Below the pieces are notes generated by a model that was not told the origin of the DNA, did not search any database, and saw only the letters and a list, made by a program, of their open reading frames with translations. A program made the translations under genes and the position numbers. This document shows, in pieces, positions 6,441 to 40,084 of a stretch of DNA of 64,000 bases. This DNA is from an uncultured Methanolobus sp. (lineage in GTDB: Archaea; Halobacteriota; Methanosarcinia; Methanosarcinales; Methanosarcinaceae). The DNA lies in assembly GCA_963675495.1 (NCBI GenBank), contig OY776215.1, positions 576,001 through 640,000 on the forward strand, read 5' to 3'. The number at the start of each line of letters is the position of its first letter. The first letter of the stretch is position 1.

Positions 6441-6447
6441 AGTTAAG

Positions 6448-6554: not shown

Positions 6555-6578
6555 GTGCCGCCTGCGGCGGGATGGATG
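6555..6578 (+). repeat. Cassette-boundary motif copy
   Basis: GTGCCGCCTGCGGCGGGATGGATG. Confidence 0.9.
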
Positions 6579-6698
6579 ACTGTGTGTTGGCTATTTTGCA
6601 AATATATTCTATGAATGTTAGCTGATTCTAAATTCATTGGATATCATGCGTACAGAATCCATATATAGTAAAGAAGCAAATAGAGAATGGGATACTGA

Positions 6699-6923
6699 AT
6701 GATGACAAAATTCACTGCATACATAGAGAGAGACCTTGAAACTGACTGCTATGTCGCCATCGTACCAGGAATTCCAGGGGCTCATACTCAGGCTGATACA
6801 CTTGACGAATTACATGCCAGATTAAAAGAGGTGATAGAACTCTGTCTTGAGGAAATGAATCCGGAAGAAAAAGGGTTGATTCCCGAGTTTGTAGGTGTTT
6901 CACAAATTGAGGTTACCGTATGA
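6699..6923 (+). CDS. hicB: HicB-family antitoxin
   Basis: YVAIVPGIPGAHTQADTLDEL HicB motif; ATGA overlap with hicA. Confidence 0.88.
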   Translation: MMTKFTAYIERDLETDCYVAIVPGIPGAHTQADTLDELHARLKEVIELCLEEMNPEEKGLIPEFVGVSQIEVTV

Positions 6924-7153
6924 GTAAGCTACCGTTGGTAGATGCCAAAAAAATGGAAAAGATATTATATCATCTTGGGTTTGAAAAGGTCAGACAAAAA
7001 GGTAGCCATGCATTTTATAGGCACGCTGATGGCAGAACAACTACTGTTCCTTTTCATTCAAGTAAGAAGCTTGCACGACCTCTCATTAGGGTCATACTTA
7101 GTGAAATTAACATTAACATTGAAAAGTATAATGAATTGATTAGGAATATTTGA
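6920..7153 (+). CDS. hicA: HicA-family toxin (mRNA interferase)
   Basis: LGFEKVRQKGSHAFY...TTVPFH HicA motif. Confidence 0.9.
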   Translation: MSKLPLVDAKKMEKILYHLGFEKVRQKGSHAFYRHADGRTTTVPFHSSKKLARPLIRVILSEININIEKYNELIRNI

Positions 7154-7279
7154 TTCTTTAATGTTGCTTAGATTCCTTAGTAACTATACATTTATGTGGA
7201 AAAATATTACACATCTAACATATCCAAGCGTGTAGACGAGATTATGAACAAGTTTCATAACTCATGACTATATGTTCAT

Positions 7280-7292
7280 CCACTTGCGGTGG
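7280..7292 (+). repeat. Degenerate cassette-boundary motif
   Basis: CCACTTGCGGTGG versus consensus CCGCCTGCGGCGG; same position relative to the HEPN remnant as the 11732 copy. Confidence 0.6.
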
Positions 7293-7339
7293 AATGCTGT
7301 TTTCGTGGGATACTCATATGAAAAATCAAAACAAGAGGA

Positions 7340-7465
7340 CTATGGATCCAGTTCGTTCAATAAATCCTCAATCACCGGCTTTGCTTCAGGAATACCTTCT
7401 TTTACACTAAGCCAGACAACTTCAAGATTGACGCCAAAATAAGCGTGTATTAATTTGTCACGAAT
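7340..7465 (-). pseudogene. HEPN (DUF86/HepT) toxin remnant with large internal deletion
   Basis: Reads IRDKLIHAYFGVNLEVVWLSVKEGIPEAKPVIEDLLNELDP*; the central part present in the 11810-12150 copy is missing. Confidence 0.85.
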
Positions 7466-7474
7466 GCAAATCCC

Positions 7475-7783
7475 TCAGATAGCTTCGACTTCTTTCAGTA
7501 TATATTTACCTATATTTGGCTTCAGTGAATCTTTCATGACAAGGTCAACTTTAACTCCCAGGGAATCGGAAAGATAGTTCTCTAAATGAACAAATCTAAA
7601 AATAGTAGGTGTCCTGCTGAACTCTACCAGTACATCAAGATCACTTTTCGGAGTATTCTCTCCCCGCACATAGGATCCAAACAATCCAATGTAACTGACA
7701 TTATACTCCTTTTTTAGCTGCGGTAGCATTTCATACAGCTGCTTTCTGTATTTTTCAATGTCTTTTTTATGTTGCATGATCAT
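7475..7783 (-). CDS. Minimal nucleotidyltransferase (MNT/MntA-type antitoxin)
   Basis: GLFGSYVRGENTPKSDLD (GSx10DxD); near-identical to 12160-12471. Confidence 0.92.
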   Translation of the reverse strand: MIMQHKKDIEKYRKQLYEMLPQLKKEYNVSYIGLFGSYVRGENTPKSDLDVLVEFSRTPTIFRFVHLENYLSDSLGVKVDLVMKDSLKPNIGKYILKEVEAI

Positions 7784-7931
7784 CCTTAAAAAGGTCTTAT
7801 TTGCATATATGTTAGTTTCATATGTATAATTATTTGTCTTGTTTGGAAAATTAATGAATGTTAAAAAGATTGATCTTTACTTGAAATGTAGTATGCAGTT
7901 CTTGCTTATTATTACTCAACAGTTTGGGAAT

Positions 7932-7954
7932 ATGCCGCCTTCGGCGTATGCTTG
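7932..7954 (+). repeat. Cassette-boundary motif copy
   Basis: ATGCCGCCTTCGGCGTATGCTTG. Confidence 0.88.
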
Positions 7955-8091
7955 TATTGGTCTTGTAGGGGAAAACAATCACGAATATATATCCTATGTA
8001 TGACAACCTATATACATAAGTAAGGACAATAAATATTTGATGCCAATATGGCTGATAATCCACATAAGTAAGATAACAGGAGAATAAGCTA

Positions 8092-8235
8092 ATGGCAAAA
8101 CCAATTGAACTTGGGCTGGTGCTGGAAGGTGAAGATGCAAAAGAGTTTTGGGAAAACGAGAGAAAGCCAGCTACAAAACAACAGATAAAAATGTTCAAAG
8201 AAGCCAGGAAAATATCAGATCGTATTCATTTTTAG
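8092..8235 (+). CDS. Small (47 aa) putative antitoxin upstream of GNAT toxin; not in the ORF track
   Basis: MAKPIELGLVLEGEDAKEFWENERKPATKQQIKMFKEARKISDRIHF*, preceded by AGGAG RBS, 14 bp upstream of the GNAT ATG. Confidence 0.7.
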   Translation: MAKPIELGLVLEGEDAKEFWENERKPATKQQIKMFKEARKISDRIHF

Positions 8236-8249
8236 TCCTGTTATTTGGT

Positions 8250-8762
8250 ATGTCTAAGTCTCAATTTTCTATTTCTCCTCTTTCTGAGAGAAACGGTGTT
8301 TTGTCTTTTTGCTGTCAGAACAAGGATCTAAACGACTTTTTAAAAAATGATGCCTTTGGTAATCAGGAACAACTCATAAGCAAAACTTATGTTTGTTATT
8401 ATCAGAAAGATTTTGCGGGGTATTTCACTTTGACCACGGATACTATGAAAGTCAAATATATTGATGATTCAGATTGTGTTGATGGTTTTCCATATTCCAG
8501 ATACCCGGCTGTCAAACTCGCAAGACTTGCCACTGATAAGAGATTTGAAAGGAGAGGAGTTGGCTCTTACATGCTGTTTGCAGCAATAGGTTTAGCTTAA
8601 AGGGTCGCAGATATCACTGGATGCAGATATATTACAGTTGATTCAAAACCCGAATCTATAGGATTTTACACCAAATATGGATTTAAGATCGTTAAGACTT
8701 CTCTTAAAAAAGACTATACCTCCCTATATCTGAACATGCAACCCATAGTAAAAGGCATTTAG
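8250..8762 (+). pseudogene. GNAT acetyltransferase toxin (AtaT/TacT-like) with premature stop
   Basis: FCCQNKDLNDFL, PAVKLARLATD, RRGVGS motifs; in-frame TAA at 8598-8600, after which the frame continues as RVADITGCRYITVDSKPESIGFYTKYGF to TAG at 8762. Confidence 0.85.
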
Positions 8763-9021
8763 GCAACTATTTTTCATTATTAAGCAGTGCTTACAAATTT
8801 TGTATGATCTCACAAATATTCTTTTTTGTCTCAAAAAATATCTTCTTGGTTCAAAGGTTTGATTATTTTTAAATTACGATATTACCGAGGATTTTGTCAG
8901 GTACATGACTATTACCCATATATTGCCAATCAGTATTGAATGCATCAGCCATGATAACTTCATTAAATGTGTGATCAATGTCCAATTATTTTATGAATAT
9001 GATAATCAGCAGTACAAGAAT

Positions 9022-9044
9022 GTGCCGCCTGCGGCTTATGGCTG
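9022..9044 (+). repeat. Cassette-boundary motif copy
   Basis: GTGCCGCCTGCGGCTTATGGCTG. Confidence 0.88.
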
Positions 9045-9093
9045 CACAGAATTTAAGAAATATACTCGAAAACTTATACGATAAAATACTAAC

Positions 9094-9402
9094 TCATTTC
9101 AGAAGTTCAATAAACTCCTTGACTGTAAGCCCCGATACCCTGATCAATTGCCTCAGAAGACCTGGTTTTAACTACCTGTGCTTTGGGACGGTCAGTGTTA
9201 TCCTGGAGCCTTCCTTTCTCAATACGACATGACTTCCTACTTGCCTGTGAGGATACCAGCCTGCTTTAGAAAAAGCTTTAATTGTATCCATTCCGAAAAT
9301 AACAGGTAATTTCGGTGTTCGGCTATCACTTCAACGATCTTGCAGGAAGGTCTTGTCATGCAGACATTAGATTCGTCCTCAGCAAGTGATTCAAAACATG
9401 CA
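9094..9402 (-). pseudogene. Decayed hicBA pair (HicB C-terminal fragment plus disrupted HicA)
   Basis: HicA-like PKLPVI...KAGWYPHRQVGSHVVL...TVPKHR*LKPGLLRQLIR with lost start, internal TAG and a frameshift before GLTVKEFIELLK; upstream ACFESLAED...IVEVIA resembles a HicB tail. Confidence 0.8.
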
Positions 9403-9438
9403 TGTTTCTGTTTTTTTGTCTATATGTGATAATGCAAT

Positions 9439-9461
9439 GTGCCGCCTGCGGCGTATGGTTG
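9439..9461 (+). repeat. Cassette-boundary motif copy (consensus)
   Basis: GTGCCGCCTGCGGCGTATGGTTG. Confidence 0.92.
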
Positions 9462-9477
9462 CAGTGAATAAACTACT

Positions 9478-9696
9478 CTATTCTCCAATCCACTCATCTC
9501 TGGATATATGAGCCTGTTTCAGGATTCTCTGCAGCAGATCTACACTAATCCTGCCTTTGTGAGGATTAGGGACTGTCAGAACAATATCTCCTTTTGTCAT
9601 GAAAGAATGTTTGCCACCTGAAAAAGGACCTTCGAATTCCAATTCCCTTAGTCGTTTGACAAGGTTTCGTTGGGTGACAGGAGTCAGCTTAGGCAA
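9478..9696 (-). CDS. hicA: HicA-family toxin
   Basis: FEGPFSGGKHSFM...TVPNPH motif; probable TTG start overlapping the hicB stop. Confidence 0.85.
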   Translation of the reverse strand: MPKLTPVTQRNLVKRLRELEFEGPFSGGKHSFMTKGDIVLTVPNPHKGRISVDLLQRILKQAHISRDEWIGE

Positions 9697-9940
9697 TAGC
9701 AACTTCTCCGGAGTCTTTTATTACATGATTGCCCATAGGTGGAAGGGTTAAGCCTTTTCTGAGTCTGAAAACTATCCATTCATCAATGGTATCTTCAAGG
9801 TTTTTCCTGCACTCTTCAAGAGTACTACCTGTAGCCCACACACCCTCGAGTTCAGGCACCTCGCCATAGTAGGGCTCATCATCTTCAATTATCTCATATC
9901 TGGCTTTCTCAAGAGCTGTCTGGATATATTCAATAAGCAT
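9689..9940 (-). CDS. hicB: HicB-family antitoxin
   Basis: YYGEVPELEGVWATGSTLEECRKNL HicB motif. Confidence 0.88.
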   Translation of the reverse strand: MLIEYIQTALEKARYEIIEDDEPYYGEVPELEGVWATGSTLEECRKNLEDTIDEWIVFRLRKGLTLPPMGNHVIKDSGEVAIA

Positions 9941-10075
9941 AATTGGTACCTGCATAAATTTTGTTCTGTGCTATGTATTCTTAATATAGTTTCATGAGTA
10001 TATGAACAATTTGTTTGATGAGATGTACTGGTTTAAAATTATGTATCCCTTTTTGCTACTCAGCAATATGGAAAA

Positions 10076-10098
10076 GTGCCGCCTGCGGCGTATGGTTG
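10076..10098 (+). repeat. Cassette-boundary motif copy (consensus)
   Basis: GTGCCGCCTGCGGCGTATGGTTG; 10059-10098 is identical to 10770-10809. Confidence 0.92.
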
Positions 10099-10194
10099 CA
10101 TATTCCAAAAAAATCATGTCCCATCATTAATTAAAGCAGACTATATGAAGGAGAAATTATTAATATCATATTAATACCATGTTATTATGATACT

Positions 10195-10434
10195 ATGGTT
10201 AAAGCAATAATTAATATTGATGACAAGACCAACCGGGTGCTGAACATAGTTAAAGCCAAGTATGGCCTGAAAGATAAGAGCTCGGCTATTGAACTTGTAA
10301 CAAAACAATATGAAGAGGAACTCCTGGAGCCAAAGCTTAGACCTGAATATATAGAAAAGGCTAAAAGGATAATGGCCCAGGACGCAGTGGACGTAGGTAC
10401 AGTAGACAACTTGAGGGAAAGATTGGGTATCTGA
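10195..10434 (+). CDS. Antitoxin (DUF2683-like, ribbon-helix-helix type)
   Basis: MVKAIINIDDKTNRVLNIVKAKYGLKDKSSAI; directly upstream of a RelE-like gene. Confidence 0.78.
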   Translation: MVKAIINIDDKTNRVLNIVKAKYGLKDKSSAIELVTKQYEEELLEPKLRPEYIEKAKRIMAQDAVDVGTVDNLRERLGI

Positions 10435-10435
10435 A

Positions 10436-10699
10436 ATGTATTATTTGAAGATCGAACCTGATCTTGAGAAAACACTTAAAAAACTGGCTAAGAAGAATAA
10501 GAAACAATTAGGGATGATTCTCAGTAAAGCTGAAGAAATTGTTGAAAATCCCCATAGATACAAAAATCTAAGGGCACCACTGAATATGTGGAAGAGAGTA
10601 CACATAGACAGACATTTCGTATTGGTTTTTTCGGTGGATGAGGAAAGCAATAGTGTCACACTTGAAGACTATGCCCATCACAATGACATCTACAAATAA
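10436..10699 (+). CDS. RelE/ParE-superfamily toxin
   Basis: 87 aa basic protein; NPHRYKNLRAPL...RVHI...FVLVF...YAHHNDIY. Confidence 0.85.
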   Translation: MYYLKIEPDLEKTLKKLAKKNKKQLGMILSKAEEIVENPHRYKNLRAPLNMWKRVHIDRHFVLVFSVDEESNSVTLEDYAHHNDIYK

Positions 10700-10786
10700 G
10701 ATTGTCAGTATTTGAGTAGCCGGGAATTGGCAGAACTCTAATATTTTTGTGAGTTTTTGATAGTTACTTCTCAGCAATATGGAAAA

Positions 10787-10809
10787 GTGCCGCCTGCGGC
10801 GTATGGTTG
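10787..10809 (+). repeat. Cassette-boundary motif copy (consensus)
   Basis: GTGCCGCCTGCGGCGTATGGTTG. Confidence 0.92.
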
Positions 10810-10914
10810 AACTACGTAAAATACCACCTATTTAAAATCGATTTCATTTTGAAATATCCTGCATGAAATTTAATAAGAATGATAACATATGTATGTGCAT
10901 TGAGATGTGATATT

Positions 10915-11205
10915 ATGGTGGAAATGCAGATCGAGAAATACAAAAAAACCATAATCCCGATATTGCTAAAAAATGATGTGGATGAAGCAGGCATTTTTGG
11001 TTCGTTTGCAAGAAATGAAGCAAAATTGGATAGTGACATCGATATTCTTGTTCATTTCAAGGACCGAAAAAGTCTATTTGATCTTGCCAGATTAGAACTG
11101 GAACTCGAAAAGGAAGCTCAAAGAAAGGTAGAAGTCATTACTTACGATTCCATAAATCCCCTTATAAGGAATCGAATCCTGAAGGAAGAAGTGAAGATAT
11201 TATGA
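10915..11205 (+). CDS. Minimal nucleotidyltransferase (MNT antitoxin)
   Basis: GIFGSFARNEAKLDSDID motif; ATGA overlap with the HEPN gene; start uncertain. Confidence 0.9.
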   Translation: MVEMQIEKYKKTIIPILLKNDVDEAGIFGSFARNEAKLDSDIDILVHFKDRKSLFDLARLELELEKEAQRKVEVITYDSINPLIRNRILKEEVKIL

Positions 11206-11546
11206 AAGATGATGAAGTGTTCATTGAACATATTATTGATTCTATCGAGAAGATAGAGTACTTCACAAACGATAAGAAAAAAGATGATTTTCTGGAAGAT
11301 GTGCAACTTCAGGACGCAACGATAAGGAGAATAGAGATTATCGGTGAAGCATCAAAAAACATCTCCGATGATCTCAAAGGACAACATCCAGATGCCCCAT
11401 GGAGTGAAATGGCAAGAACGAGGGACAAATTGATACACGGTTACTTTGGAGTAGACCTTGGACTTACATGGGACATTATTGAACATGATCTGCCTGAACT
11501 CAAGACTAAAATGAAACAAATACTTGATGAAATTAAGTATAAGTAA
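11202..11546 (+). CDS. HEPN (DUF86/HepT-like) RNase toxin, intact
   Basis: IEIIGEASK, PWSEMARTRDKLIHGY (Rx4HxY). Confidence 0.92.
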   Translation: MKDDEVFIEHIIDSIEKIEYFTNDKKKDDFLEDVQLQDATIRRIEIIGEASKNISDDLKGQHPDAPWSEMARTRDKLIHGYFGVDLGLTWDIIEHDLPELKTKMKQILDEIKYK

Positions 11547-11731
11547 GGAGATGGAGCTATTCCATGATTCTTCTTTGCGTGTTCATCCACTTGCAGCAGG
11601 AGAAGTTAGTCTGAGTGAGATCGAAGCTGAGAACTGCTAAAGATCTCTTTGATATTTCTACTGGGAAGTATTGCTTTTGATTTAAAATATTATAACAAAT
11701 TATTGTTTTCGCTCCTTAGCAGCTCAGCAAA

Positions 11732-11754
11732 ATGCCGCCTGCGGCGGGTGGTTG
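11732..11754 (+). repeat. Cassette-boundary motif copy
   Basis: ATGCCGCCTGCGGCGGGTGGTTG. Confidence 0.9.
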
Positions 11755-11809
11755 TTTTCTAGAGATAAACAAAAACAAGAAAAACCTTGAAAACTACAAA
11801 AAAATAGAA

Positions 11810-12150
11810 TTATGGAGGTAATTCGTTCAGCAGGTTCTCGATCACCGGCTTTGATTCCGGAATACCCTTTTTTACACTGAGCCAGACAACTTCAAGATTA
11901 ACACCAAAATAAGCATGTATCAGTTGTCCCGGATGCCTGCCAGATCCTTCCATGGAACTGAGGTGTATGTTTGCCTTATATCATCAGGAATGTTCTTTGC
12001 TGCTTCACCGATTATTTCCAGAACCCTTATAACAGCATACTGGGTTTTGACATCTTCGAGAAAATCCTCAAAGGTGCATTGATCCACAAAGCTCTCAGCT
12101 GCTTCCATGGAATTGTATATGTCCTGTACATAATCTCTTACGTCACGAAT
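11810..12150 (-). pseudogene. HEPN (DUF86) toxin frameshifted within the catalytic motif
   Basis: LEIIGEAAKNIP...PWKDLAGIRD, then a 1-nt deletion (GAC AAC TGA instead of GAC AAA CTG); LIHAYFGVNLEVVW continues in another frame; ATT in place of a start ATG. Confidence 0.85.
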
Positions 12151-12159
12151 GCAGATCCC

Positions 12160-12471
12160 TCAGAGAACTTCTACTTCATTCAGTATGTATTTGCCTATGT
12201 TTGGTTTCAGCGCATCCTTCATGACAAGGTCTACTTTTACCCCCAGAGAATCGGAAAGATAGTTCTCTAAGTGAACAAATCTGAAAATCGTATGTGTCCT
12301 GCTAAATTCTACCAATACATCAAGATCACTTTTCGGAGTATTCTCTCCCCGTACATAGGAACCGAACAATCCTATATAACTGATATTATACTCCCTTTTT
12401 AGCCGCGGTAGCATCTCATGGAGCTGTTTTCTGTATTCTTCTACGTCTTTTTTGTGTTGTATGGGTATCAT
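12160..12471 (-). CDS. Minimal nucleotidyltransferase (MNT antitoxin)
   Basis: GLFGSYVRGENTPKSDLD; paralog of 7475-7783. Confidence 0.92.
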   Translation of the reverse strand: MIPIQHKKDVEEYRKQLHEMLPRLKREYNISYIGLFGSYVRGENTPKSDLDVLVEFSRTHTIFRFVHLENYLSDSLGVKVDLVMKDALKPNIGKYILNEVEVL

Positions 12472-12788
12472 TTAAACGGTCTTATTTGCTTTATATGTTT
12501 GTTTCATATGTATAATTGTTTGTCCTGTTTGGAGAAACAAATGAATTTTAAAAAGATTGATCTTTACCTGAAATATAGCATGTACTTCTTGCTTTTTACT
12601 ACTCAACATGAGAGTGCTGCTTGTAGGATCAAGACTGAAAATTGCTGAAGATCTCTTTGAAGTCTGTATTAGAAAGTGTTGCTTCAGATTAGATATTAGG
12701 CTGGAAATGTAGGATCGTTACCTGATCGATTTTTGTTTTAGATATTTTATGCCTCTTCTTTTATTTTACTAGGCAGCAGTATAGGAAC

Positions 12789-12811
12789 GTGCCGCCTGCG
12801 GCGTATGGTTA
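12789..12811 (+). repeat. Cassette-boundary motif copy (last of array 1)
   Basis: GTGCCGCCTGCGGCGTATGGTTA. Confidence 0.9.
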
Positions 12812-13085
12812 TGTTGGTCTTGAACACTTAGTTCGGTTACTTTGCTAGTTAGTATCAAGGAAACTTTTGTTTTTAAAACTATAAAAGTGCCTTCAAACCC
12901 CAGTTAAATAGCCTTTTTACTACGCTGATCCACCTAACAGGCCATCAAAATCTCAGTTCATATCAATTATTTTTATCTTTATCCTAAACAGTCACTAGTG
13001 ATCGAATTATATTTTTTTGAAGAAGAAAAACAAAACGAACATTTTATAAAAGTGTTCTGTCTTTTCCTGCAACGAGGAGTATCAT

Positions 13086-14168
13086 TTGTCAGAAAAACAA
13101 GAACCCTGTTACGTAAAAAGATCATTTTACAATGAAGATATCCATTATGGGATACATTCCAGGAAGACGTACACAAGCTCACCTCAGGATGCTAAACCGG
13201 ATAATACCCTCGAGCTTCCAACATTTATCCCGAATGCACCCATGAGAGTATACTTTGACCCGACATACCGATGTAACCTCAGATGCAGACATTGCATTAC
13301 TTCCTCATCACCTGACATACAAGCTGAAAATGAACTGGACATCCTGCAGATAAAGAAACTCCTGAACGAACTGGAATCCATCGGGGTACTGGAGCTGGCC
13401 ATCACCGGAGGAGAACCGTTCATACATAAGGATATCTTTGAGATAATCGAATTCGTGCAGGATGGCAACATGAACCTGAGCATTACAAGCAACGGAACAC
13501 TACTAAGCCCGGAAAAAGCAAAAAAGCTTTCTGAGCTGGATGTATCCGATATAAGGATCAGCCTGGATGGTTGTGAGAGTGTGAACGATGACATCAGAGG
13601 CGATGGCTCATACAAAAAAGCCATGACAGGACTCAGAAACCTGATACAGGCAAATGTCCCAGCCACCGTAAGAATGACACTCACCAGTAAGACTCACGAA
13701 GGACTCGAACACCTATTCCATGACCTGCAGGACGTAGGAGTTACAAAACTCAAAGCCGCCATCATCAAGGAAGCAGGTAACGCCACCCTGGAAGAGAACT
13801 CAGACCTCTTCGGCTACCAACCCACAGAAGATGCTGTTCAAAGCTTAATGAAACTCGGAGAAGAAAATAACATATCTGTGGAACTGTCAAGCGAGGATTT
13901 TAATCTTGAACCTGAGCAATCAGGAGACAAAAGATTAAGAGCTGCTGAACACCATACATGCGGAGCAGGACATGAAACAGCCTACATCTCACCAATTGGC
14001 AATGTATTACCCTGCTCATCCATGCCCCACGTGATTTTAGGAAACATAGGAAATGACAGTTTCACAGATGTCTGGGAAGGTCGAGTTACAAAGAAATACA
14101 AGACTTTAGCTCGCCTTTCTGAAGAAAAAGCGATGTGCAAGGCAAATTTTGTAAAACTCTGGCTATAG
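13086..14168 (+). CDS. Radical SAM protein with short SPASM/twitch-type C-terminal domain
   Basis: CNLRCRHC, TGGEPF, ISLDG and CGAG...ISPIGNVLPC motifs; TTG start uncertain. Confidence 0.85.
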   Translation: MSEKQEPCYVKRSFYNEDIHYGIHSRKTYTSSPQDAKPDNTLELPTFIPNAPMRVYFDPTYRCNLRCRHCITSSSPDIQAENELDILQIKKLLNELESIGVLELAITGGEPFIHKDIFEIIEFVQDGNMNLSITSNGTLLSPEKAKKLSELDVSDIRISLDGCESVNDDIRGDGSYKKAMTGLRNLIQANVPATVRMTLTSKTHEGLEHLFHDLQDVGVTKLKAAIIKEAGNATLEENSDLFGYQPTEDAVQSLMKLGEENNISVELSSEDFNLEPEQSGDKRLRAAEHHTCGAGHETAYISPIGNVLPCSSMPHVILGNIGNDSFTDVWEGRVTKKYKTLARLSEEKAMCKANFVKLWL

Positions 14169-14373
14169 TCTGATATTGCAATCGAACAATTCCCAGAAAA
14201 GATGGAAGTAGAATCACCCATCTAATCCCCATACTAATATATATGTACATACATTATTTTGTGCTAATTTCACAAAACTTAAATATGTATAGATTGTTTA
14301 CTGTACCCATTGGCGTACATATAAACAGGCATATCTGGAATGCCTGAATAAAAACATTTGGGTGGATTAAAAA

Positions 14374-15336: not shown

Positions 15337-15377
15337 AATGATGTTAGTTTCCTCGAGAATTACTCAAAAGGTGGACT

Positions 15378-15965: not shown

Positions 15966-16041
15966 TGATTTGTACAGGTCTAAATTCTGATAATGAAATT
16001 TTAATTGGATCTATAAAAAAAGTTGTACGTTGGTGAAATAA

Positions 16042-16626: not shown

Positions 16627-16764
16627 TTTATAATCATAAATAATCAAATTATACCACAAAACTACAAAAATAGTAATGTATGAACCCTAACACTACAAAA
16701 TGAAAAGAAAGCAAAACAGAGTAAATGACATGACCATCTTCTAAACATCAGTAGGATTATTATT

Positions 16765-17316: not shown

Positions 17317-17318
17317 GT

Positions 17319-19770: not shown

Positions 19771-19794
19771 TTAAAAGCACAATGGGGAAACTGA

Positions 19795-24279: not shown

Positions 24280-24288
24280 AATCTACCC

Positions 24289-26148: not shown

Positions 26149-26163
26149 TATTATAGCACATTG

Positions 26164-27330: not shown

Positions 27331-27339
27331 AAACTGAAT

Positions 27340-28452: not shown

Positions 28453-28535
28453 ATGAAATTTTCAACATCCTTATATAAGTTTTTAAAAATATGTTCTGCT
28501 AATTATACTGACATTTTTTATTTCACAATATAATT

Positions 28536-30882: not shown

Positions 30883-30894
30883 CCACCCTGATTA

Positions 30895-31980: not shown

Positions 31981-32077
31981 AACGCACCGCCCCTGACGAA
32001 CGCTGCTTCGCGCGGGCGATAACACTACCTATGGCTATCTCCTCATTGAATGCGGGAATTACAGCTACTGTCGTCAT
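31970..32077 (-). pseudogene. 35-aa N-terminal fragment of a second GT2 gene
   Basis: MTTVAVIPAFNEEIAIGSVIARAKQRSSGAVRYVF*, with GGTGG RBS; overlaps the start of the downstream GT2. Confidence 0.7.
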
Positions 32078-32602: not shown

Positions 32603-32877
32603 TTTTGTTCCTCTATATAGCCACATTATTAGTAATATGTTATATAGTTTTTTATTTATAAATTTAGATTGTGGAACAAGTGATCTTCGAGGAATTATAG
32701 GATACATCTTAGGGTATTTGTGTGCATTGGTAAGATTTTTGGAAAAATGAAGGTGGTGTGGATACTTAGATGCAATACAACCATCCGCCGCATGCGGCAC
32801 GGTCCATTGTCACTGATATAGAAAGACATATGCAGGAGCAACGCAAAGTGAAGAATCAGAATGATAAAATCCTGAGT

Positions 32878-33164
32878 TTAACAACGGTTAAATCTTTGCC
32901 TTAATTTATCGTAAATCGAAGATCTATAATCTACAGCATAAAAAATAATATTGTGCATGACATCAATATCAAACACTATTCTGTATTTCCCCACCCTATA
33001 CCTATAATATTCGAAACACTGCAATTGCTTGGTATTAGCTGTAAAAGGATCAATTAAATTATGCACTCTATTGAACGAACGATCTTTTTGACATCAGCAG
33101 GATGCTTCTTACGAATTGCTTTTAAATCTTTCTTAATTAAAAACATTCGTAAAGATACCTTCAT
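32878..33164 (-). pseudogene. RelE-family toxin, frameshifted
   Basis: MKVSL...IKKDLKAIRKKHPADVKKIVRSIE in one frame, then DPF...YRYRVGKYRIVFDID...RSSIYD in another. Confidence 0.75.
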
Positions 33165-33167
33165 ACC

Positions 33168-33347
33168 TCATTCTAATCCAAATTCATCTTTGAGCTCTTT
33201 AAGAGTACAAACATTGCCTTCTTTAAGATCTCTTTTTGCTTCCTCGATGCGTTTAATAGTCTTTGAGCTCAAAGGCATAGAGTCAACATCAGTAATTGTA
33301 GAACAAGATCTTTTCGTTTTAGAACATGGATGAGTATTTAGAACCAT
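33168..33347 (-). CDS. Putative antitoxin (59 aa); not in the ORF track
   Basis: C-terminus LSSKTIKRIEEAKRDLKEGNVCTLKELKDEFGLE typical of archaeal RelE-partner antitoxins; stop lies 3 bp before the RelE ATG. Confidence 0.65.
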   Translation of the reverse strand: MVLNTHPCSKTKRSCSTITDVDSMPLSSKTIKRIEEAKRDLKEGNVCTLKELKDEFGLE

Positions 33348-33689
33348 TTATATACAATATCTCATGCACACTTAAATAAGTAGTACCAAAAATGGCTCTT
33401 TAGAAATCTCCAATATTCGAACTTCTCAGCGGTTCGTATTTTAAGAAGGTAGCAAATTTATCTTTCCGACCTGCTAATTTAAGCTTTATTGTCGTAACAA
33501 TTATTGTTTAAACAATAATACGTAACATCTACCAGAATAGATTTACGACGTAGCTATGAACTATCAGGAATACAACGCAACCACCCCGCAAAAGGCGGCA
33601 CATTCCGACACCATAAAAGAACAGGACAAAACCGATATCCCATCAAAAATAGACCCACAAAAACATTTCCAGCTCCAAATACAAAAGAA

Positions 33690-33953
33690 TCAATATATTA
33701 CATCATGGTGATCATAATCAAGTATCATGATTGCTTTTTTATCCGCATCTATTTCATAGATCAGCACAAATGAAGAGTCAATATGTACCCTCCTTGCACC
33801 GTGCAGATCACCACGTAATGGTTTATAGTGATACGGATTCAAGATTATCTGTTGAACTTTCTTGCTGATAATATTCATCTGCTTAGGATTCTTTTTAGCA
33901 AGCTTCATGAATTTCTTATCAGCAAGCTCGGATACAACAACGCAATACTCCAT
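33690..33953 (-). CDS. RelE/StbE-family toxin
   Basis: NPYHYKPLRGDLHGARRVHIDSSFVLIY...YDHHDVIY; homolog of 10436-10699. Confidence 0.87.
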   Translation of the reverse strand: MEYCVVVSELADKKFMKLAKKNPKQMNIISKKVQQIILNPYHYKPLRGDLHGARRVHIDSSFVLIYEIDADKKAIMILDYDHHDVIY

Positions 33954-33958
33954 TATGT

Positions 33959-34177
33959 TTACCCGTAGCGTTCAGAAAAATCACTTACATGGACAAATTT
34001 ACCCTTCCTGATATTGTCAAGTTTTTCCAGGTATTCCTGACTTGCTTCCGGTTCCCTGGATATTACACTCTCCATGAACATCTGTATCTGTTTGCTCATG
34101 CTCATACCATGTGATTTACACAGGGCAGAGAACTCCTTATATGTATCTTCATCCACATTGAAAGTCTTTAATACCAT
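33959..34177 (-). CDS. Ribbon-helix-helix antitoxin
   Basis: MVLKTFNVDEDTYKEFSALCKSHGMSMSKQI RHH pattern, upstream of RelE. Confidence 0.78.
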   Translation of the reverse strand: MVLKTFNVDEDTYKEFSALCKSHGMSMSKQIQMFMESVISREPEASQEYLEKLDNIRKGKFVHVSDFSERYG

Positions 34178-34193
34178 TGAGATCACACCAATT

Positions 34194-34268
34194 ATTTAAT
34201 ATTTAATAATCTTATTTAATGTTTAATAACATTATTTAATCATATTTAATCATATTTAATCATATTTA
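34194..34268. promoter_or_regulatory. ATTTAAT iterations, including (ATTTAATCAT)x3, upstream of the RHH-RelE pair; putative autoregulatory operator
   Basis: Six ATTTAAT heptamers plus one GTTTAAT directly upstream of the antitoxin start. Confidence 0.45.
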
Positions 34269-34499
34269 CCCCCATACATATCAAGTTTTTTCAATTGATC
34301 AAAATGATATAGATCATTTAAACTTTGTAGAAAGATTCTACTTTAAATAAGCTGCAATACAACCATCCACTGCAGGCGGCACTATCCACAATTACTGCAA
34401 AAAAGAAGATATATAGCCTGCTGATCAAAGAACGATCTCCAGCATTATCAGCGTATTTTCCATAACACATAAATAGTACGGAATTAAATCATAATTATT

Positions 34500-35930
34500 A
34501 TGTTCCGTAATTTCATTAATCGTGTCCATGAACTGGAATTCCTTAACAGGGAATATAGTTCAAAAGATCTTTCTTTCACCGTCATCTACGGACGCAGGCG
34601 AGTAGGCAAAACAGAACTTATCCAGCAGTTTGTGAAAGACAAGCCCCATATCTTCTTTCTGGCGGACATGAGAGGCACACGATCCAATACCCTCAGATTC
34701 AGGAAAAAAGCTTCAGGCTTATTCGATGATATAGAACCTGCAGCAGAGGCATTTGATGATGTGTTCGAATACATAAGTAAAAAATGGAAAAGTTCCAAAA
34801 AGCTTGTCATAGTTATCGATGAGTTCTCCTATCTGGCACAGACCGATAGATCCATACCGTCAGTATTCCAGCTTATCGTTGATGAGATACTCAAAGGAGG
34901 ACATTTCCATCTGATACTCTGTGGCTCATCCATTTCCATGATGGAAAAAACAACTCTTTCCCATTCAAGTCCTCTTTATGGAAGGAGGACAGGACAGATC
35001 AAGGTCATGCCACTGAGTTTACGCCACATGACTGGTTTTTCCCCGGAATCAACACCAGAAGAGCTTTTAAAAATATATGGTGCAACTGGAGGAATTCCTT
35101 TCTACCTCAGATTCTTTGATCCTGGAAATGATCTTTATGAGAACATAGGACAACACATATTTTCCAAAGATGCAGTATTATATGCCGAAGGCGAGTTCCT
35201 TCTTCGCGAAGAATTGAGAGAGCCGGCAACTTACATGAACATCCTTTATTCCATCTCCAAAGGTAGCACAAAAGCAGGAGAGATCGCTGCTGGCGCTTTC
35301 ATTGAAACAAAGGATCTATCATACTATACAGATACTTTGATGAGGCTTGGCTTTATCAGGAAAGAGCACCCTGTTGCAGAAAAAACATCTACCCGTAAAA
35401 CGATCTACGTTATAGATGACCCTTTTCTGCGCTTCTGGTTCAGATATGTACTGATACATAGAGATTCCATAGAAGCAGGTGATAATTCGCATGCCATCCA
35501 GGACCTGGATAAGAGCTACGACCGTTACCTGGGGGAAACGTTCGAACAGGTATCCAAAGAGATCCTTACATACCTCAATTTACAGGATAAACTCCCTTTC
35601 AGGTTCAGATCCATAGGCAGACAATGGGGAAAGATACCTAATATACCAAAAGGTAAAAATGACTATGAAATTGACCTGGTGGCCCTTGATCAGGATTCAA
35701 AGAACATACTCTTCTGTGAATGCAAATGGCAGAAGCAGAAGGTCAATACAGATGTCTACTTCAACCTGAGAGAGAAAGCGTGTCATGTAAAGTGGTTCCC
35801 CGAGAGAAAAGAACACTTTGCACTTATCAGCAGATCGGGTTTCACAAAAAAGATGCATGAAATAGCAAAGCAGGAGAATGTTCTGTTACTTACCCTGCAT
35901 GATTATTTGTCCAGATCTTCTGCTGAATAA
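34500..35930 (+). CDS. Archaeal AAA ATPase with C-terminal DUF234/PD-(D/E)xK nuclease-like domain
   Basis: FINRVHEL, YGRRRVGKT Walker A, IVIDEF Walker B, LYGRRT, EIDLVA...FCECKW. Confidence 0.9.
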   Translation: MFRNFINRVHELEFLNREYSSKDLSFTVIYGRRRVGKTELIQQFVKDKPHIFFLADMRGTRSNTLRFRKKASGLFDDIEPAAEAFDDVFEYISKKWKSSKKLVIVIDEFSYLAQTDRSIPSVFQLIVDEILKGGHFHLILCGSSISMMEKTTLSHSSPLYGRRTGQIKVMPLSLRHMTGFSPESTPEELLKIYGATGGIPFYLRFFDPGNDLYENIGQHIFSKDAVLYAEGEFLLREELREPATYMNILYSISKGSTKAGEIAAGAFIETKDLSYYTDTLMRLGFIRKEHPVAEKTSTRKTIYVIDDPFLRFWFRYVLIHRDSIEAGDNSHAIQDLDKSYDRYLGETFEQVSKEILTYLNLQDKLPFRFRSIGRQWGKIPNIPKGKNDYEIDLVALDQDSKNILFCECKWQKQKVNTDVYFNLREKACHVKWFPERKEHFALISRSGFTKKMHEIAKQENVLLLTLHDYLSRSSAE

Positions 35931-35983
35931 GTTCAAGAATACAACCTCACTGCAAAGGCAACACATAAAAATAATATTGTGCA

Positions 35984-36044
35984 TTACGACTAAAAGGCGT
36001 AAGGGTAGAGAAAGCCCACGCACTTTAGTCATGGGAGCAGTCAC
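35984..36044 (+). mobile_element. Miniature IS200/IS605-type end remnant
   Basis: Two imperfect hairpins, TTACG-ACTAAAAGG-CGTAA and CCCACG-CACTTTAGT-CATGGG, ending GCAGTCAC as in IS605-family right ends. Confidence 0.5.
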
Positions 36045-36265
36045 AACCTATCAATTCATGCGTTGTTGTCATAACAATTATTGTTTAAACAATAATAAGT
36101 AACATCTACCAGAATAGATTTACGATGTATCAATGAACTATCAGGAATACAATACAACCATCCGCCGAAGGCGGCACGGTTCACAATTACTGAAAAAAGA
36201 TGAGTTATAGCCTGCTGATCAAAAAATATATATATATAAAAAATAAAAAAAATAATCAAAGGAAC

Positions 36266-36862
36266 TCAAAACATTATCTTTGCCTTTATCTGAGCTAATT
36301 CATGTTCTATTGTTGAGATCCTCTCGTCAAGATGAGACCTGAAATCATCCCTGTTCAACCGAACCTCGGATGCTATTTCTGTTCTGTTTTGGTCAATCTT
36401 TTCACCAACCACATCGATCTTATCACCCAATCCATCGATCTTCCCACTTACGACTTCGACTTTACTGCCAACCGAATCAACCCCATCACCGACCCTGTCG
36501 ATCTTCTGCCCGAGATTCGAGTTCATTTCACGCATATACCTCACAGCTGCATCCATTCGCTCATAAGTTGCTGTGGTCAGATCCTCGTCTCTGACTATCT
36601 CAAATGTACCATACTCGCCAGTTGCTTTTGTGTAGACTACATCGATATTCGTTACACGTATAGGATATTGAGTGATGTTGACTTTTTCAAGTAACTCCCT
36701 GATGCTGCCCTCTGTACCCTCACAGACAACTTGCACCGTGCCATCATCGAGATTTTTGACATATCCATTAAGAGCCAGATCAAAAGCTATTTCGTCAATG
36801 AAATCCCTGAAACCTGCTTTCTGAACTCTGCCATGTATTATGACCTCTGCACGCTTCTTCAT
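36266..36862 (-). CDS. Acylphosphatase-domain protein with C-terminal coiled-coil/heptad repeat tail
   Basis: GRVQKAGFR, GYVKNLDDGTV; tail with KIDRVGD/KVEVVSG/KIDGLGD/KIDVVGE repeats. Confidence 0.85.
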   Translation of the reverse strand: MKKRAEVIIHGRVQKAGFRDFIDEIAFDLALNGYVKNLDDGTVQVVCEGTEGSIRELLEKVNITQYPIRVTNIDVVYTKATGEYGTFEIVRDEDLTTATYERMDAAVRYMREMNSNLGQKIDRVGDGVDSVGSKVEVVSGKIDGLGDKIDVVGEKIDQNRTEIASEVRLNRDDFRSHLDERISTIEHELAQIKAKIMF

Positions 36863-37015
36863 AAGAGTTGATTTTTCCTGAAGCAATATAAACGTTATTA
36901 TCATATCTCATTAACAAGCCAGAAATAATCACAGAACTTAAACAACCACCCGCCGCAGGCTGCACACACCATCACCAAAAATGTAAAAAGAAAATCCGGA
37001 GAATAGTCTTTGCCC

Positions 37016-38275
37016 TCATTCAAGCAACCATTTCCACACAGGCCTAACACTTATTTTCCTGCCATCCATTTCAAGCGCTTCCTCCGTATCTTCCGTGAGT
37101 ATGAGACCTTCTTTCAGCCCGTACTTATCCATAGCTTCCAGAAGTCCTGCTATCTCTCTTTTTTCATTTGACCATTCCATCCTCTGAGTAACCTGTATTG
37201 CTTTTATGATATGTCCCTTCTCCATCAATATGAAATCACACTCATTCTTATCCACGTGGTAATAGATATCATGCCCCCTGTTTTTCAATTCAAGGAATAC
37301 AATGTTCTCAAGTGTTTTGCCTGTATCCTTTGAGAATTTGAAGGCAAGAACGTTCATCAGTCCTGTATCTATGATATAGGCCTTCTTCTTTGAATATATC
37401 TGCTTTTTAAGAGAGTAATCAAAAACATTGATCGTAAAGATCAGATAAGAGTTCTCCAGATGATCTATGTAATTTTTCACTGTTGTCTGGCTGCCAATTC
37501 CTAGGACGTTCTTTAACCTGTTATAGCTTATCTCAGTTCCGGGATTAGTTATCAGATAATACGCAAGGGATCTTATTGCAGTCTCGTCCTTAATACCATA
37601 TCTTGCGATAATATCCCTGTACAGGATGTTATCATAGAGGTTCCTGATTATGTCCTTATTTCCGTATTTATAATACTCTGGAATGCCGCCATTTTCAAGA
37701 TACTGACTGAATTCTTTTTTGATCCTTGCTCTCTCCTCTGTCAGATAAAACTCCTTTTCAGTTTCTATGCCTTTTGAACCCATCAGCTCTTTGAATGAGA
37801 AAGGATAGAGTTCAAGTTTCACATGTCTTCCGGTAAGCTTTGTCCCCAGCTCCCTGCTCATCAAAGAAGAATTTGAGCCGGTGATGTAGAATTTGAAACC
37901 CCGGTCATACATCCGCCGTATGAATGCTTCCCAGTTGGGTATGTTCTGTATCTCATCAAAGAAAAAGACCTTGCTCTCTTTTGATGTTTCCAGAAATGAT
38001 TCATACAGGGCATTGAAATCGCCTACTTTGAAGTCAAGCAACCTTTCATCTTCAAAATTCATGTAATATATGTTATCTTCCGGATAGTATCTTTTTTTTA
38101 TCTGTTTTAAAAGGGTGCTTTTACCCGCACGTCGCAGACCAGTGATAACCACTATATGAGGAATTTGGGAGTAACTTTCTATTTCTTCAAGCTTCTGGCG
38201 CTTTATTGTCGGCACCTCCATTTCAAACTCCTGCTTTTGCTCTGCTATAAGCTCCTTTATCTGCATAATATCCAT
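37016..38275 (-). CDS. ATP-binding protein (AAA_14 + DUF4143)
   Basis: GLRRAGKST, FFFDEIQ, TGS, LTGR, IDTGL, LENIVF, ECDF; start uncertain. Confidence 0.9.
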   Translation of the reverse strand: MDIMQIKELIAEQKQEFEMEVPTIKRQKLEEIESYSQIPHIVVITGLRRAGKSTLLKQIKKRYYPEDNIYYMNFEDERLLDFKVGDFNALYESFLETSKESKVFFFDEIQNIPNWEAFIRRMYDRGFKFYITGSNSSLMSRELGTKLTGRHVKLELYPFSFKELMGSKGIETEKEFYLTEERARIKKEFSQYLENGGIPEYYKYGNKDIIRNLYDNILYRDIIARYGIKDETAIRSLAYYLITNPGTEISYNRLKNVLGIGSQTTVKNYIDHLENSYLIFTINVFDYSLKKQIYSKKKAYIIDTGLMNVLAFKFSKDTGKTLENIVFLELKNRGHDIYYHVDKNECDFILMEKGHIIKAIQVTQRMEWSNEKREIAGLLEAMDKYGLKEGLILTEDTEEALEMDGRKISVRPVWKWLLE

Positions 38276-38577
38276 AAATTGCATTCTGTGATGAATGCAT
38301 ATATATATTTCCATTTAAAATGGAGATTATTACTCACAAATTGTCATTGATAATGGAGATTATAGCAATGATATCTCCATTTAAAATAGAGACATTGCAC
38401 TCCAAAGTACATTATACGAAAAGTCTATGAACGCATATCGACCAAAACCATCCCGCTGCAGGCGGCACAGTCCATCAATACTGTTGTAACAAGAATGTAT
38501 AGATATTCTCTAGGCAATGTTGCAAAGAAAAAAGAACATAAACACATGTGATCAGTTATGATCTTTATTGCATCCAT

Positions 38578-39858
38578 TCACTCAAGCAGCCATTTCCACA
38601 CAGGCCTCACGAAGATCTTCCTTCCATCCCTTTCGATCATATCTTCAGTATCCTTTGTAAGTATGAGACCTTCCTCCAGATCATAGGTCTGCATTGCTTC
38701 ACGTAAACCTTCGACCTCACGTTTTTTGTTGTCCAGGTTCAGCTCCTTTGTCACCTGAATAGCATTGGTTATTTTATTATCTGCTTTTATCAGAAAATCG
38801 CACTCATATGTACCTTTATGGTAGTAAACTTCGTTCTGTCTTCTTATAAGCTCTATAAAGATCAGGTTTTCAAGCAGTCTGCCGTAGTTCTCTGAGAACT
38901 TGAAAGACACTGCATTTATCATACCAGTATCAAGGCAGTATATCTTCTTTGGATTTGCAAGTTGTTTCCTGAGAGAATAATCAAATTTTTTGATGGAATA
39001 TAATAAGTATGAGTCTTCTGCGTAGCTCAGGTACTCTTTTACCGTATCTGCAGATATTTCCAAGACATTTGCTATGCTGTTGTAAGAAAAAGGCTTGCCA
39101 ACATTTGAAATAATGAAGTATAGCAAGTTTATTACATCCCTGTTATTCCTCAGTTTATGTGGAAAGATTATGTCTTTCAGGTATATGGTCTCATAATAAT
39201 TTTTTAAAAGCTCTTCTTTGATGTCATTGTCCCCTTCAAGAGAGATCCGGGGGAAAGAACCATGCTTGAGATATTCCTCGAACTCCAGTTTTTTCTCACC
39301 GGATGTCAGCCTTTTGAGTCCTTTGAAATCCAGATATTCTTTAAAGGTTAGTGGAAAGACCGTTACTGCAAGGTATCTTCCTGAAAGACGTGTGATGGTC
39401 TTCTTTTTAAGTAGGGATGATGTGGAACCCGTCAATACAAATTTCAGGCGCTTGTCAGTATCGTATAATATTTTCAGTGTCTGCGTCCAGTACCTGAAGT
39501 TCTGGACCTCATCAAGAAAAATGTAGTATCTTTCTTTTTTCGTTGCCGCGATATGATCTTCAATGATACCCGAAAGAAGAACGGCACTCTCTGACCTGCT
39601 CTGGAACACCGGTTCATCAAGGTTTATGTAAAGTACCGACATGGCCTCGTTTTCAGGCAGTTCAAGACTGCTGATAAGCTGGTATATGAGAGTTGACTTG
39701 CCCGTCCTTCTTGCACCAAGTATTAGCAGTATCTCTTCCGTACCCATATATTTGGCTAAACGTGGATAATAATGAAGACGAGGTATACTCGTACTGTAAC
39801 TTTTTCCGAACCACCCCGGATTCTGCTTTTCCAGCACTTCTTCGATCAGTTGTTCCAT
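38578..39858 (-). CDS. ATP-binding protein (AAA_14 + DUF4143)
   Basis: GARRTGKST, IFLDEVQ, LSGR, LDTGM, LENLIF, ECDF; paralog of 37016-38275 (both end RPVWKWLLE). Confidence 0.9.
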   Translation of the reverse strand: MEQLIEEVLEKQNPGWFGKSYSTSIPRLHYYPRLAKYMGTEEILLILGARRTGKSTLIYQLISSLELPENEAMSVLYINLDEPVFQSRSESAVLLSGIIEDHIAATKKERYYIFLDEVQNFRYWTQTLKILYDTDKRLKFVLTGSTSSLLKKKTITRLSGRYLAVTVFPLTFKEYLDFKGLKRLTSGEKKLEFEEYLKHGSFPRISLEGDNDIKEELLKNYYETIYLKDIIFPHKLRNNRDVINLLYFIISNVGKPFSYNSIANVLEISADTVKEYLSYAEDSYLLYSIKKFDYSLRKQLANPKKIYCLDTGMINAVSFKFSENYGRLLENLIFIELIRRQNEVYYHKGTYECDFLIKADNKITNAIQVTKELNLDNKKREVEGLREAMQTYDLEEGLILTKDTEDMIERDGRKIFVRPVWKWLLE

Positions 39859-40084
39859 AATGACTTATTTGTTTTTCAAGTTAAATAAAATTACCGATTA
39901 TAATCTATGATTTACAGCAGAAATTCAGATTATAATCGATGATTGTGTGATATATATACTTCAATCACAAACTTCCATATAAAAAATAATAACTCCGCCG
40001 CGGGCGGCACAGTCCATCCATTATACATAAAAACAATTATACTGACAAATTACAGATCAAAAAAAAAAGCCCAAAACTAACCTT

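Follow-up and report, generated by a model that had tools for sequence, protein, structure and literature searches.

Integrons, gene modules bounded by Xer sites and dispersed extragenic palindromes are among the described systems closest to the arrangement reported here. The attC sites of integrons carry boxes with the consensus RYYYAAC and GTTRRRY. In pdif/Xer systems (integrative mobile elements exploiting Xer, IMEX), small modules, often with toxin-antitoxin (TA) or resistance genes, are bounded by 28-bp sites consisting of two inverted 11-bp arms and a 6-bp spacer, and the host supplies the enzyme in trans. Repetitive extragenic palindromes (REPs) and bacterial interspersed mosaic elements (BIMEs) are short, GC-rich 3' palindromes outside genes, lineage-specific and present in tens to more than 100 copies, which go with a cognate gene for a REP-associated tyrosine transposase (RAYT), usually flanked by REPs, and can act as recombination hot spots; to our knowledge, they do not delimit stacks of TA modules. 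An integron requires an IntI-type tyrosine recombinase with attI beside the array, whereas a cluster of attC sites lacking an integrase (CALIN) does not, and arrays with no integrase nearby are common. For archaeal integrons and CALINs, Ghaly et al. 2022 (PMC9668308) give TA systems a share of 10.5% among cassette proteins with a functional prediction. The main text of that study contains no word starting with Methanolobus, Methanosarcin or Halobacteriota; the supplementary data lie outside this check. Here, we analyse a stretch of 64,000 nucleotides (the window; bases 576001-640000 of one 2,874,008-bp contig of a Methanolobus genome, designated G000), in which copies of a short hairpin repeat, the motif, stand between small TA and defence modules in two stacks.

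A preliminary description of the window had listed 15 clear and four degenerate copies of a 23-bp motif, confined to two clusters, and had proposed that the motif is the recombination or insertion site of a cassette-capture system with an enzyme acting in trans. The observation itself is confirmed by our analysis, and the interpretation is partly supported.

The repeat, its two stacks and its dispersed copies

We searched the window for the 23-mer with up to 3 mismatches and found 11 matches, against 0 in 100 shuffles. An nhmmer profile built from the first matches and run over the 2.87-Mb genome returned 27 rows, 21 of them within the cut-off of E ≤ 0.1. Fifteen of the 21 are inside the window, eight on the plus strand (6546-12817) and seven on the minus strand (32771-40017); the other six lie elsewhere in the genome, and the repeat is thus not confined to two clusters. 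A refined motif profile, run over 6001-41000, recovered the same 15 copies at E ≤ 2e-5, the remaining 8 rows being noise (E ≥ 2.6). We thus reproduce 15 copies in all and not the 19 of the preliminary description, and four of the 15 are weak or degenerate (6545, 33575, 36940 and 39993); two further hairpins seen by eye (~7279 and ~12612) gave no match to the motif profile. As had been described, all 15 copies are intergenic, located between non-overlapping long open reading frames (ORFs) on the ORF map, and orientation is uniform inside each stack, plus on the left and minus on the right. The number and orientation of motifs in the window are non-random.

The left stack begins with M1 (6545-6578; E 1.1e-8), which follows the argG stop codon by ~105 nt and is degenerate in its 3' part. 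M2 (7918-7958) and M3 (9008-9046) were found as 23-mer matches and by both profiles. M4 (9427-9463; 23-mer at 9439-9461), M5 (10062-10101) and M6 (10773-10810) contain the exact 23-mer, and M5 and M6 are 95.7% identical over 46 nt. M7 (11717-11758; 23-mer match and profile) carries a terminator-like flag, and M8 (12775-12814), the innermost copy of this plus-strand series, adjoins the glycosylation island. On the minus strand, the right stack extends from the innermost copy, M9 (32774-32814), through M10 (33575-33611; weak, E 1.8e-5), M11 (34356-34396) and M12 (36151-36191) to M13 (36940-36967), which lies at the 3' end of an AAA_14-DUF4143 gene, M14 (38446-38482; both profiles) and the outermost M15 (39993-40021). 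M8, M9, M11, M12 and M13 were detected as 23-mer matches and by profile. M15 is degenerate and located ~68 nt after the stop codon of a ydjM-like gene; in both G001 and G006, an orthologue of M15 adjoins this flank.

The two stacks are mirror images, at opposite edges of a 33.5-kb hypervariable island (6490-40080). On its left, carB and argG (5259-6440, plus strand) form a conserved flank; argG is present in all 36 genomes of our Methanolobus comparison set, in which G000 is the source genome and the others are designated G001 and so forth. On the right, a ydjM-like membrane gene (40085-40669, minus strand; assigned by comparison with relatives and by annotation) is followed by a hybrid histidine kinase gene. 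We compared the 40 kb located 3' of argG in ten of the 36 genomes. In G004, a motif-free stretch of 165 nt separates argG from the ydjM-like gene. G001, the closest species, whose argG is 94% identical, has only ~6 kb between these flank genes. G008, G006 and G049 have plus copies near argG and minus copies near the other flank, as in G000; in G008, five stack motifs point plus and seven minus. Homologous modules occupy differing positions and differing stacks in related species. One-way TA stacks are also found at other loci, namely G002:C26 (7/7 copies in one direction), G002:C13, G012:C7 and G013:C28. A metagenome scan yielded 6 stretches, of which two long ones appear to repeat the G002 stacks, as judged by motif spacing and by similarity to the same G000 regions. 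Module stacks of this layout are real and recur in Methanolobus.

The conserved core of the repeat spans ~30 bp, TGGAA-N-GTGCCGCC-TKC-GGCGG-ATGGTT, and consists of a GC hairpin with asymmetric flanks. Among 51 short copies, the information content drops sharply on both sides of this core. The repeat occurs in two forms, either inside a miniature inverted-repeat transposable element (MITE) of 180-345 bp bounded by terminal inverted repeats (TIRs), or as a bare core of ~45 bp. When as many as 2 mismatches were tolerated, 19 of 24 other genomes of the genus contained the motif, copy numbers ranging from 0 to 110; with up to 1 mismatch, it was found in 16/24 genomes of the genus versus 2/176 other genomes of the order. 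Judged by these counts, the repeat family is specific to Methanolobus.

The highest number, 110 copies over the whole chromosome, was found in G006, where the motif is the central hairpin of a ~345-bp element with 18-bp TIRs (GGCTCTGTAGAAATCCTG). An internal TIR-like copy delimits a shorter form of ~180 bp, and the hairpin is followed by TTTGTTTTT. Among 25 copies at 20 G006 loci, 19 have the orientation of the ORF upstream of them and 14 are flanked by convergent genes; the neighbours are ordinary genes. Among the 100 G006 matches listed, all 18 copies beyond ~1.64 Mb are on the plus strand; in the first 1.45 Mb, copies are on both strands and ~4 times denser.

The stack copies represent the separate short form: a MITE profile matched 7 of the 15, only at its positions ~270-324, and detected no TIRs in the 15 window copies. 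Two decayed 1-kb insertion sequence (IS) copies in G000 (402972-403973 and 646926-647977; 83% mutually identical) have the same 18-bp TIRs as the MITE. Both hold broken pieces of a DDE transposase without the motif, and they are probably the remains of the MITE's parent element.

Four of the six G000 copies outside the window (near 2328569, 2806849, 2850097 and 2857402) lie in a 280-bp intergenic repeat. Besides the motif, this repeat contains a double GC hairpin (CCCGGAGGG and CCGGCGAAGCCGG; loops of GAA type) that is strongly conserved. In the G006 MITE, the double hairpin is on the motif's other side, and the two arrangements look circularly permuted.

Searches of Rfam retrieved no family, whether in the window (gathering thresholds), in the five other G000 loci (E ≤ 0.1) or in four G006 MITE loci (E ≤ 1). 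For a covariation analysis, 103 of 117 distinct copies were aligned; 14 had been removed beforehand, 11 for indels or a shifted register and three taken as chance or non-Methanolobus matches (L006, L073 and L076). Neither a stem register of 4-5 bp nor an extended helix of 11 pairs scored above shuffle controls among the 103 copies, and the extended helix is 82% paired only when G-U pairs count. The analysis is conservative, because two of the removed rows (L064:2947 and L050:18537) looked like compensated hairpins. We considered and rejected a bacterial-type terminator, as only two of the eight left-stack copies were flagged as a hairpin with T-run.

Module exchange and its possible causes

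Several comparisons, of limited resolution, show that modules of this hypervariable locus are exchanged as units, with joints in the spacers that bear the core. A single motif in G001 corresponds to M10 through M15 of G000 with five modules (6.4 kb). In both genomes, the edge of the motif is also the exact end of homology on the M10 side; past the motif, the ydjM-like flank is recovered after 31 nt in G000 and after 78 nt in G001. One AAA_14-DUF4143 gene, taken together with its 3' motif, shows 91.4% identity in a comparison of G000 with G008, in which argG reaches 87%; this common block stops 3-4 nt past M13, with unrelated neighbours beyond. In G012, a VapBC-like module is located between MITE positions 226-308 and 277-436, and the core is thus duplicated on both sides of the inserted module. 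Within G000, the paralogous HepT-MNT modules at 7457-7921 and 12142-12608 have the right-hand motif junction in common. With respect to the motif, a hicAB module is placed and oriented alike in three species (G000, G012 and G002), despite differing neighbours. Blocks located 5' of a motif tend to reach its 3' edge, and blocks located 3' of a motif tend to begin at its 5' edge, which is what crossovers within a common core would give. In five comparisons, the block edges are 0-7 nt from the core.

Comparison of window positions 5000-15000 with Logan contigs of metagenome runs suggests that such exchange also takes place between strains. A contig of run X6 matches argG with ~95% identity up to 6569, inside M1. 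There follow 1940 other letters, and the match is restored from 9468, at 7 nt past M4, the 621 nt of 9468-10088 differing at 1 position. A contig of run X7 likewise starts to match at 9468; none of the 10 runs was listed as RNA, although X7 may be of that type. A second X6 contig covers the 860 nt of 10780-11639 with 2 differences and then runs into a DUF2683-RelE-like module; the module order is thus changed, MNT-HepT preceding that module there. On a third X6 contig, 10686 is connected to 12784, which lies 5 nt ahead of M8, and from there the identity on the radical-SAM side is ~87%. In X6, modules up to 99.8% identical stand beside flanks that are 87-95% identical, and the modules are therefore far more alike than the surrounding chromosome. 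Run X4 showed no differences from the window, and run X5 was not used, as its high-depth joints had sides of 21-26 letters and its pieces with 0 differences had a depth of 2. Six X6 breakpoints have long sides, and three of them are within 7 nt of a 23-mer. The earlier expectation that gain, loss and reordering of modules break at the motif is borne out as far as the joints map to motif-bearing spacers, often at the core edges; for half of these robust breakpoints, which lie ~90-100 nt away, it is not.

A second locus of the G000 chromosome is relevant here. At 1948215-1950540, the fibrillarin gene is followed by a motif, an AAA_14-DUF4143 gene and then a second copy (88%) of the last ~145 nt of the fibrillarin gene. 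Twelve of the 36 genomes of the genus contain a second partial copy of the fibrillarin 3' end, with differing cargo between the copies, and the empty state was found at 5 of the 21 fibrillarin loci examined. On this comparative pattern, the fibrillarin 3' end is a conserved insertion hot spot with Campbell-type scars, and the duplicated gene ends show that Campbell-type insertions occur in Methanolobus. The motif is present at five of the eight loci with an AAA gene beside fibrillarin. At these five, only the core is conserved and the flanks have fully diverged; a rare variant with a TAC loop is common to G000 and G047. Within the window, no duplicated ends of flank genes, as at the fibrillarin locus, were found.

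We favour, tentatively and at somewhat less than even confidence, the explanation that the motif is a genus-specific hairpin core of REP/MITE type, on which modules are stacked in the manner of Campbell by host homologous recombination. Founder cores would land behind genes and co-oriented with them, in the window behind argG and behind the convergent ydjM-like gene. A circular module carrying its own core would then join a resident core by one crossover (Campbell-type insertion), and crossovers between direct copies would remove or reorder modules. The agent may be the general homologous recombination of the host, which would suffice for all of these steps, with the core serving as portable homology, and the failure to find a dedicated recombinase is in keeping with this; both this enzyme and the circular intermediates are inferred. 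A single crossover at the core gives direct repeats and hence a uniform stack, and stacking of this kind on two founders would account for the single module per interval, the uniform orientation and the mirror symmetry. The orientation of M1 and M15 relative to the flank genes matches the co-orientation of the dispersed G006 copies (19/25).

Several points weigh against stacking by host homologous recombination. Neither a circle nor an excision junction nor a recombination event was directly observed, and ~30 bp is short for homologous recombination. Three of the eight species with the fibrillarin-AAA arrangement lack the motif, having a spacer of 20-23 nt, though the module is present. The retention of the core in place, while its flanks diverged, points to a sequence-specific function, for example protein binding or an RNA hairpin, for which plain portable homology would have no need. 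The other three X6 breakpoints with long sides (10187, 10686 and 11639) are 89-101 nt from a 23-mer; they are situated in inter-module spacers, except for 10686, which is 13 nt inside the ParE/RelE ORF. Moreover, only one strain comparison has long sides, and metagenome Logan contigs break at repeats and may mix strains.

Somewhat less probable, but the main rival and a live one, is a cassette-capture system in which an unrecognised site-specific recombinase encoded elsewhere exchanges strands in the asymmetric 30-bp core, thereby inserting and excising modules, as the integrase does at attC. Such an enzyme would explain why the core is sharp-edged and strongly conserved among species with ~80% identity (51 short copies; 103 copies in the alignment), why it is kept in place while the flanks diverge, and why orientation is strictly uniform per stack; the asymmetric flanks, TGGAA on the left and ATGGTT on the right, would give the core its polarity. 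The block edges at the core and the duplication of the core around a module inside the G012 MITE are also as expected for this explanation. On the other hand, the distant X6 breakpoints do not fit, and neither covariation nor a long fold indicates a folded single-strand site. There is no recombinase gene in the window, and the G000 genome has no Y1 TnpA (PF01797), TnpB (PF07282), serine recombinase or IS110-type gene. All six tyrosine-recombinase matches (PF00589) in G000 are outside the window, the nearest ~77 kb away.

The preliminary description had also suggested testing whether a recombinase or Y1 gene co-occurs with the motif, and across the 36 genomes of the genus none of the families checked does so. 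A Zn-ribbon tyrosine-recombinase family, represented among the six G000 matches and present in 31/36, is absent from the stack-bearing G002 and present in motif-free genomes. Y1 TnpA (20/36) does not follow the motif either, being absent from G009 with 60 copies and G019 with 26 copies, and the same is true of DUF4143 ATPases (29/36). No dedicated recombinase was found among the families checked, which did not include XerA or two short tyrosine-recombinase ORFs. For the idea that the motif is the site of a capture system, the outcome is mixed: the modular exchange supports it, whereas the genome-wide scatter of 110 copies in G006 behind housekeeping genes, together with the six G000 copies outside the stacks, is what the preliminary description had named as refuting it, and in part does so, at least for the dispersed form.

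We regard it as possible, but doubtful, that the whole amounts to an undescribed gene-capture system, in which the asymmetric 30-bp core would be the substrate of a recombinase acting in trans, MITEs would spread the landing pads, and core-bearing TA and defence modules would be captured, stacked and exchanged between strains. If true, it would do in an archaeon what the integron does, but at another kind of site and with another enzyme.

It is improbable that the motif is mainly a transcript or chromatin element (a 3'-end hairpin, terminator, insulator or protein-binding site), kept by selection between modules that are expressed independently, and that recombination is incidental. Dispersed copies come immediately after stop codons and share the orientation of the preceding gene in 19/25, the MITE hairpin is followed by TTTGTTTTT, and each stack is co-oriented with the transcription of its half of the island. 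The pairing of the 11-pair helix when G-U pairs count is RNA-like, and the core is kept in place. Yet hairpins with T-runs are seen in only 2/8 left-stack copies, 4 of the 12 strand-readable modules are antisense to the motif, and there is no covariation above shuffle controls and no Rfam family. By itself, this explanation also leaves unexplained the core duplication around modules and the one motif of G001 against six in G000.

Very improbable, finally, is that the stack copies are decayed relics of independent MITE insertions into AT-rich spacers, with no part in building the stacks: the same core does occur inside the MITE, with 110 copies in G006, and partial MITE pieces are present in the G012 stack, but the 7 matched window copies stay within MITE positions ~270-324 without a TIR and the other 8 are unmatched. 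It is implausible that fifteen copies should each have decayed independently to the same 45 bp; moreover, each stack has a single orientation, and no motif is present in the decayed IS copies of G000 that probably represent the parent.

If modules do move at the core, a methanogen without an integron integrase would have a concrete way of turning over its TA and defence genes, one open to experiment, and a dispersed repeat of MITE/REP type may seed gene-stacking hot spots beside a variable surface-glycan island. Ready-made assays are offered by the two mirror-image stacks, by modules that are nearly identical although the strains have diverged, and by the duplicated 3' end of the fibrillarin gene. 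If the core is only a 3'-end hairpin, it would still represent a new genus-specific repeat family, though an ordinary one.

Gene content of the stacks and the island

The modules of both stacks were assigned by Pfam, which confirmed the gene content given in the preliminary description (TA, ATPase-nuclease, acylphosphatase and AAA-DUF4143 modules). Its claim of one module per interval holds except for the interval 6578-7918, which contains two, a hicBA module and a HepT fragment with MNT. The first of these, hicB-hicA (6699-7153, plus; HicB_lk_antitox and HicA_toxin), has homologues in the right-hand stacks of G049 and G006. The second (7364-7783, minus) is a paralogue of 11788-12608, the identity of 86.7% over 467 nt continuing into the upstream part of M2. 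It is followed, beyond M2, by a small ORF with a GNAT acetyltransferase gene (8092-8759, plus; Acetyltransf_10, E 5.4e-8), a homologue of which is found in a G008 stack. The GNAT gene (8250-8759, plus) has one in-frame TAA at 8598-8600, and its Pfam domain is found only with this codon read as X.

The next modules of the left stack are a decayed hicA-type module (9093-9405, minus; HicA match with 1 TAG at 9127-9288), whose G006 homologue is located after a plus motif, and a hicA-hicB module of UPF0150 type (9478-9955, minus), which is 99.8% identical in run X6. They are followed by DUF2683 with ParE/RelE (10195-10699, plus), for which X6 holds a version that is 98.5% identical and a second of ~84%, by MNT-HepT (10879-11546, plus; 99.8% identical in X6) and by a further HepT fragment with MNT (11920-12471, minus), identified by Pfam and by the paralogue comparison. 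MNT thus occurs with HepT three times in this stack, twice with a truncated HepT. Of all matches in the genome, 3/5 for HepT and 3/4 for HicA fall in the left stack.

In the right stack, a ParE fragment (32878-33066, minus) is followed by RelB-ParE (33690-34186, minus), ATPase_2-DUF234 (34500-35930, plus), an acylphosphatase-domain protein (36266-36904, minus) and two AAA_14-DUF4143 modules (37016-38314 and 38578-39858, both minus), the first of which is the one related to that of G008.

Between the stacks, the central polysaccharide and glycosylation island (13086-32025; Pfam and ORF map) has a GC content of 0.28-0.31 at 20-30 kb and contains radical SAM/SPASM genes, epimerases, flippase-like and transferase ORFs and one DDE transposase. 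The latter, a DDE_Tnp_1 gene (21532-22959, plus), is located mid-island, where gene orientation turns from plus to minus, and has relatives in G003 and G047. The G002:C26 stack adjoins a sugar-epimerase gene, and TA stacks are thus located beside polysaccharide or surface-glycan clusters in two species, at different loci. A hairpin with T-run behind argG (6445-6474, plus) is distinct from the motif, although it starts with a similar GTGTGCCG; it is conserved in G001, G004, G006, G023 and G047.

Relation to described systems

Sedentary chromosomal integrons and CALINs are resembled in the stacking of small modules, in the single orientation of the repeated site and in the richness in TA and defence genes. 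In contrast to attC, the Methanolobus motif has no RYYYAAC/GTTRRRY boxes; GTTRRRY follows the motif in 1/15 copies (10787). We also considered an attC-like fold, an imperfect single-stranded DNA hairpin of 57-141 nt with extrahelical bases, and rejected it: six stretches of 131-146 nt gave z values of +0.31 to -1.58 relative to shuffles, and only the short GC hairpin was seen. The window lacks a tyrosine recombinase, and the site is found in a MITE behind housekeeping genes as well. The layout is integron-like, but it is not an integron. The preliminary description had set the motif apart from both attC and dif, which this folding and a direct reading of the copies uphold, and had excluded CRISPR, rightly so, as the intervals are gene-bearing and 0.4-1.8 kb long, compared with CRISPR spacers of 25-50 bp.

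As in pdif systems, small modules are bounded by copies of a short site. The Methanolobus core, in contrast, is a 5-bp palindrome with non-symmetric flanks, its copies are direct rather than alternating, and the stacks are chromosomal and located at gene 3' ends; the dif site of the genus was not determined. REPs and BIMEs are matched by the short extragenic palindrome itself, of which G000 has 21 copies and G006 as many as 110, intergenic at all loci examined. The difference is that G000 has no Y1/RAYT gene and that the dispersed form in Methanolobus is carried by a TIR-bounded MITE of DDE type. The palindrome-associated elements of IS200/IS605 (PATEs), which have subterminal hairpins that TnpA recognises and often a TnpB/omega-RNA, differ likewise, as G000 lacks PF01797 and PF07282 and there is no match to HEARO or any other Rfam family.

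The dispersed form is similar to MITEs of IS4/IS5 type in its 18-bp TIRs, its non-coding nature, its high copy number and its decayed 1-kb DDE parents, whereas the 15 stack copies have no TIRs and are reduced to the central core. Literature searches of titles and abstracts, with supplementary files outside their reach, retrieved no description of this motif or these stacks, nor of a MITE core as the joint between gene modules. The Methanolobus stacks are, accordingly, a variant of a known layout that is apparently new in one respect: the joint of the repeat-delimited module stack is a core of MITE/REP type.

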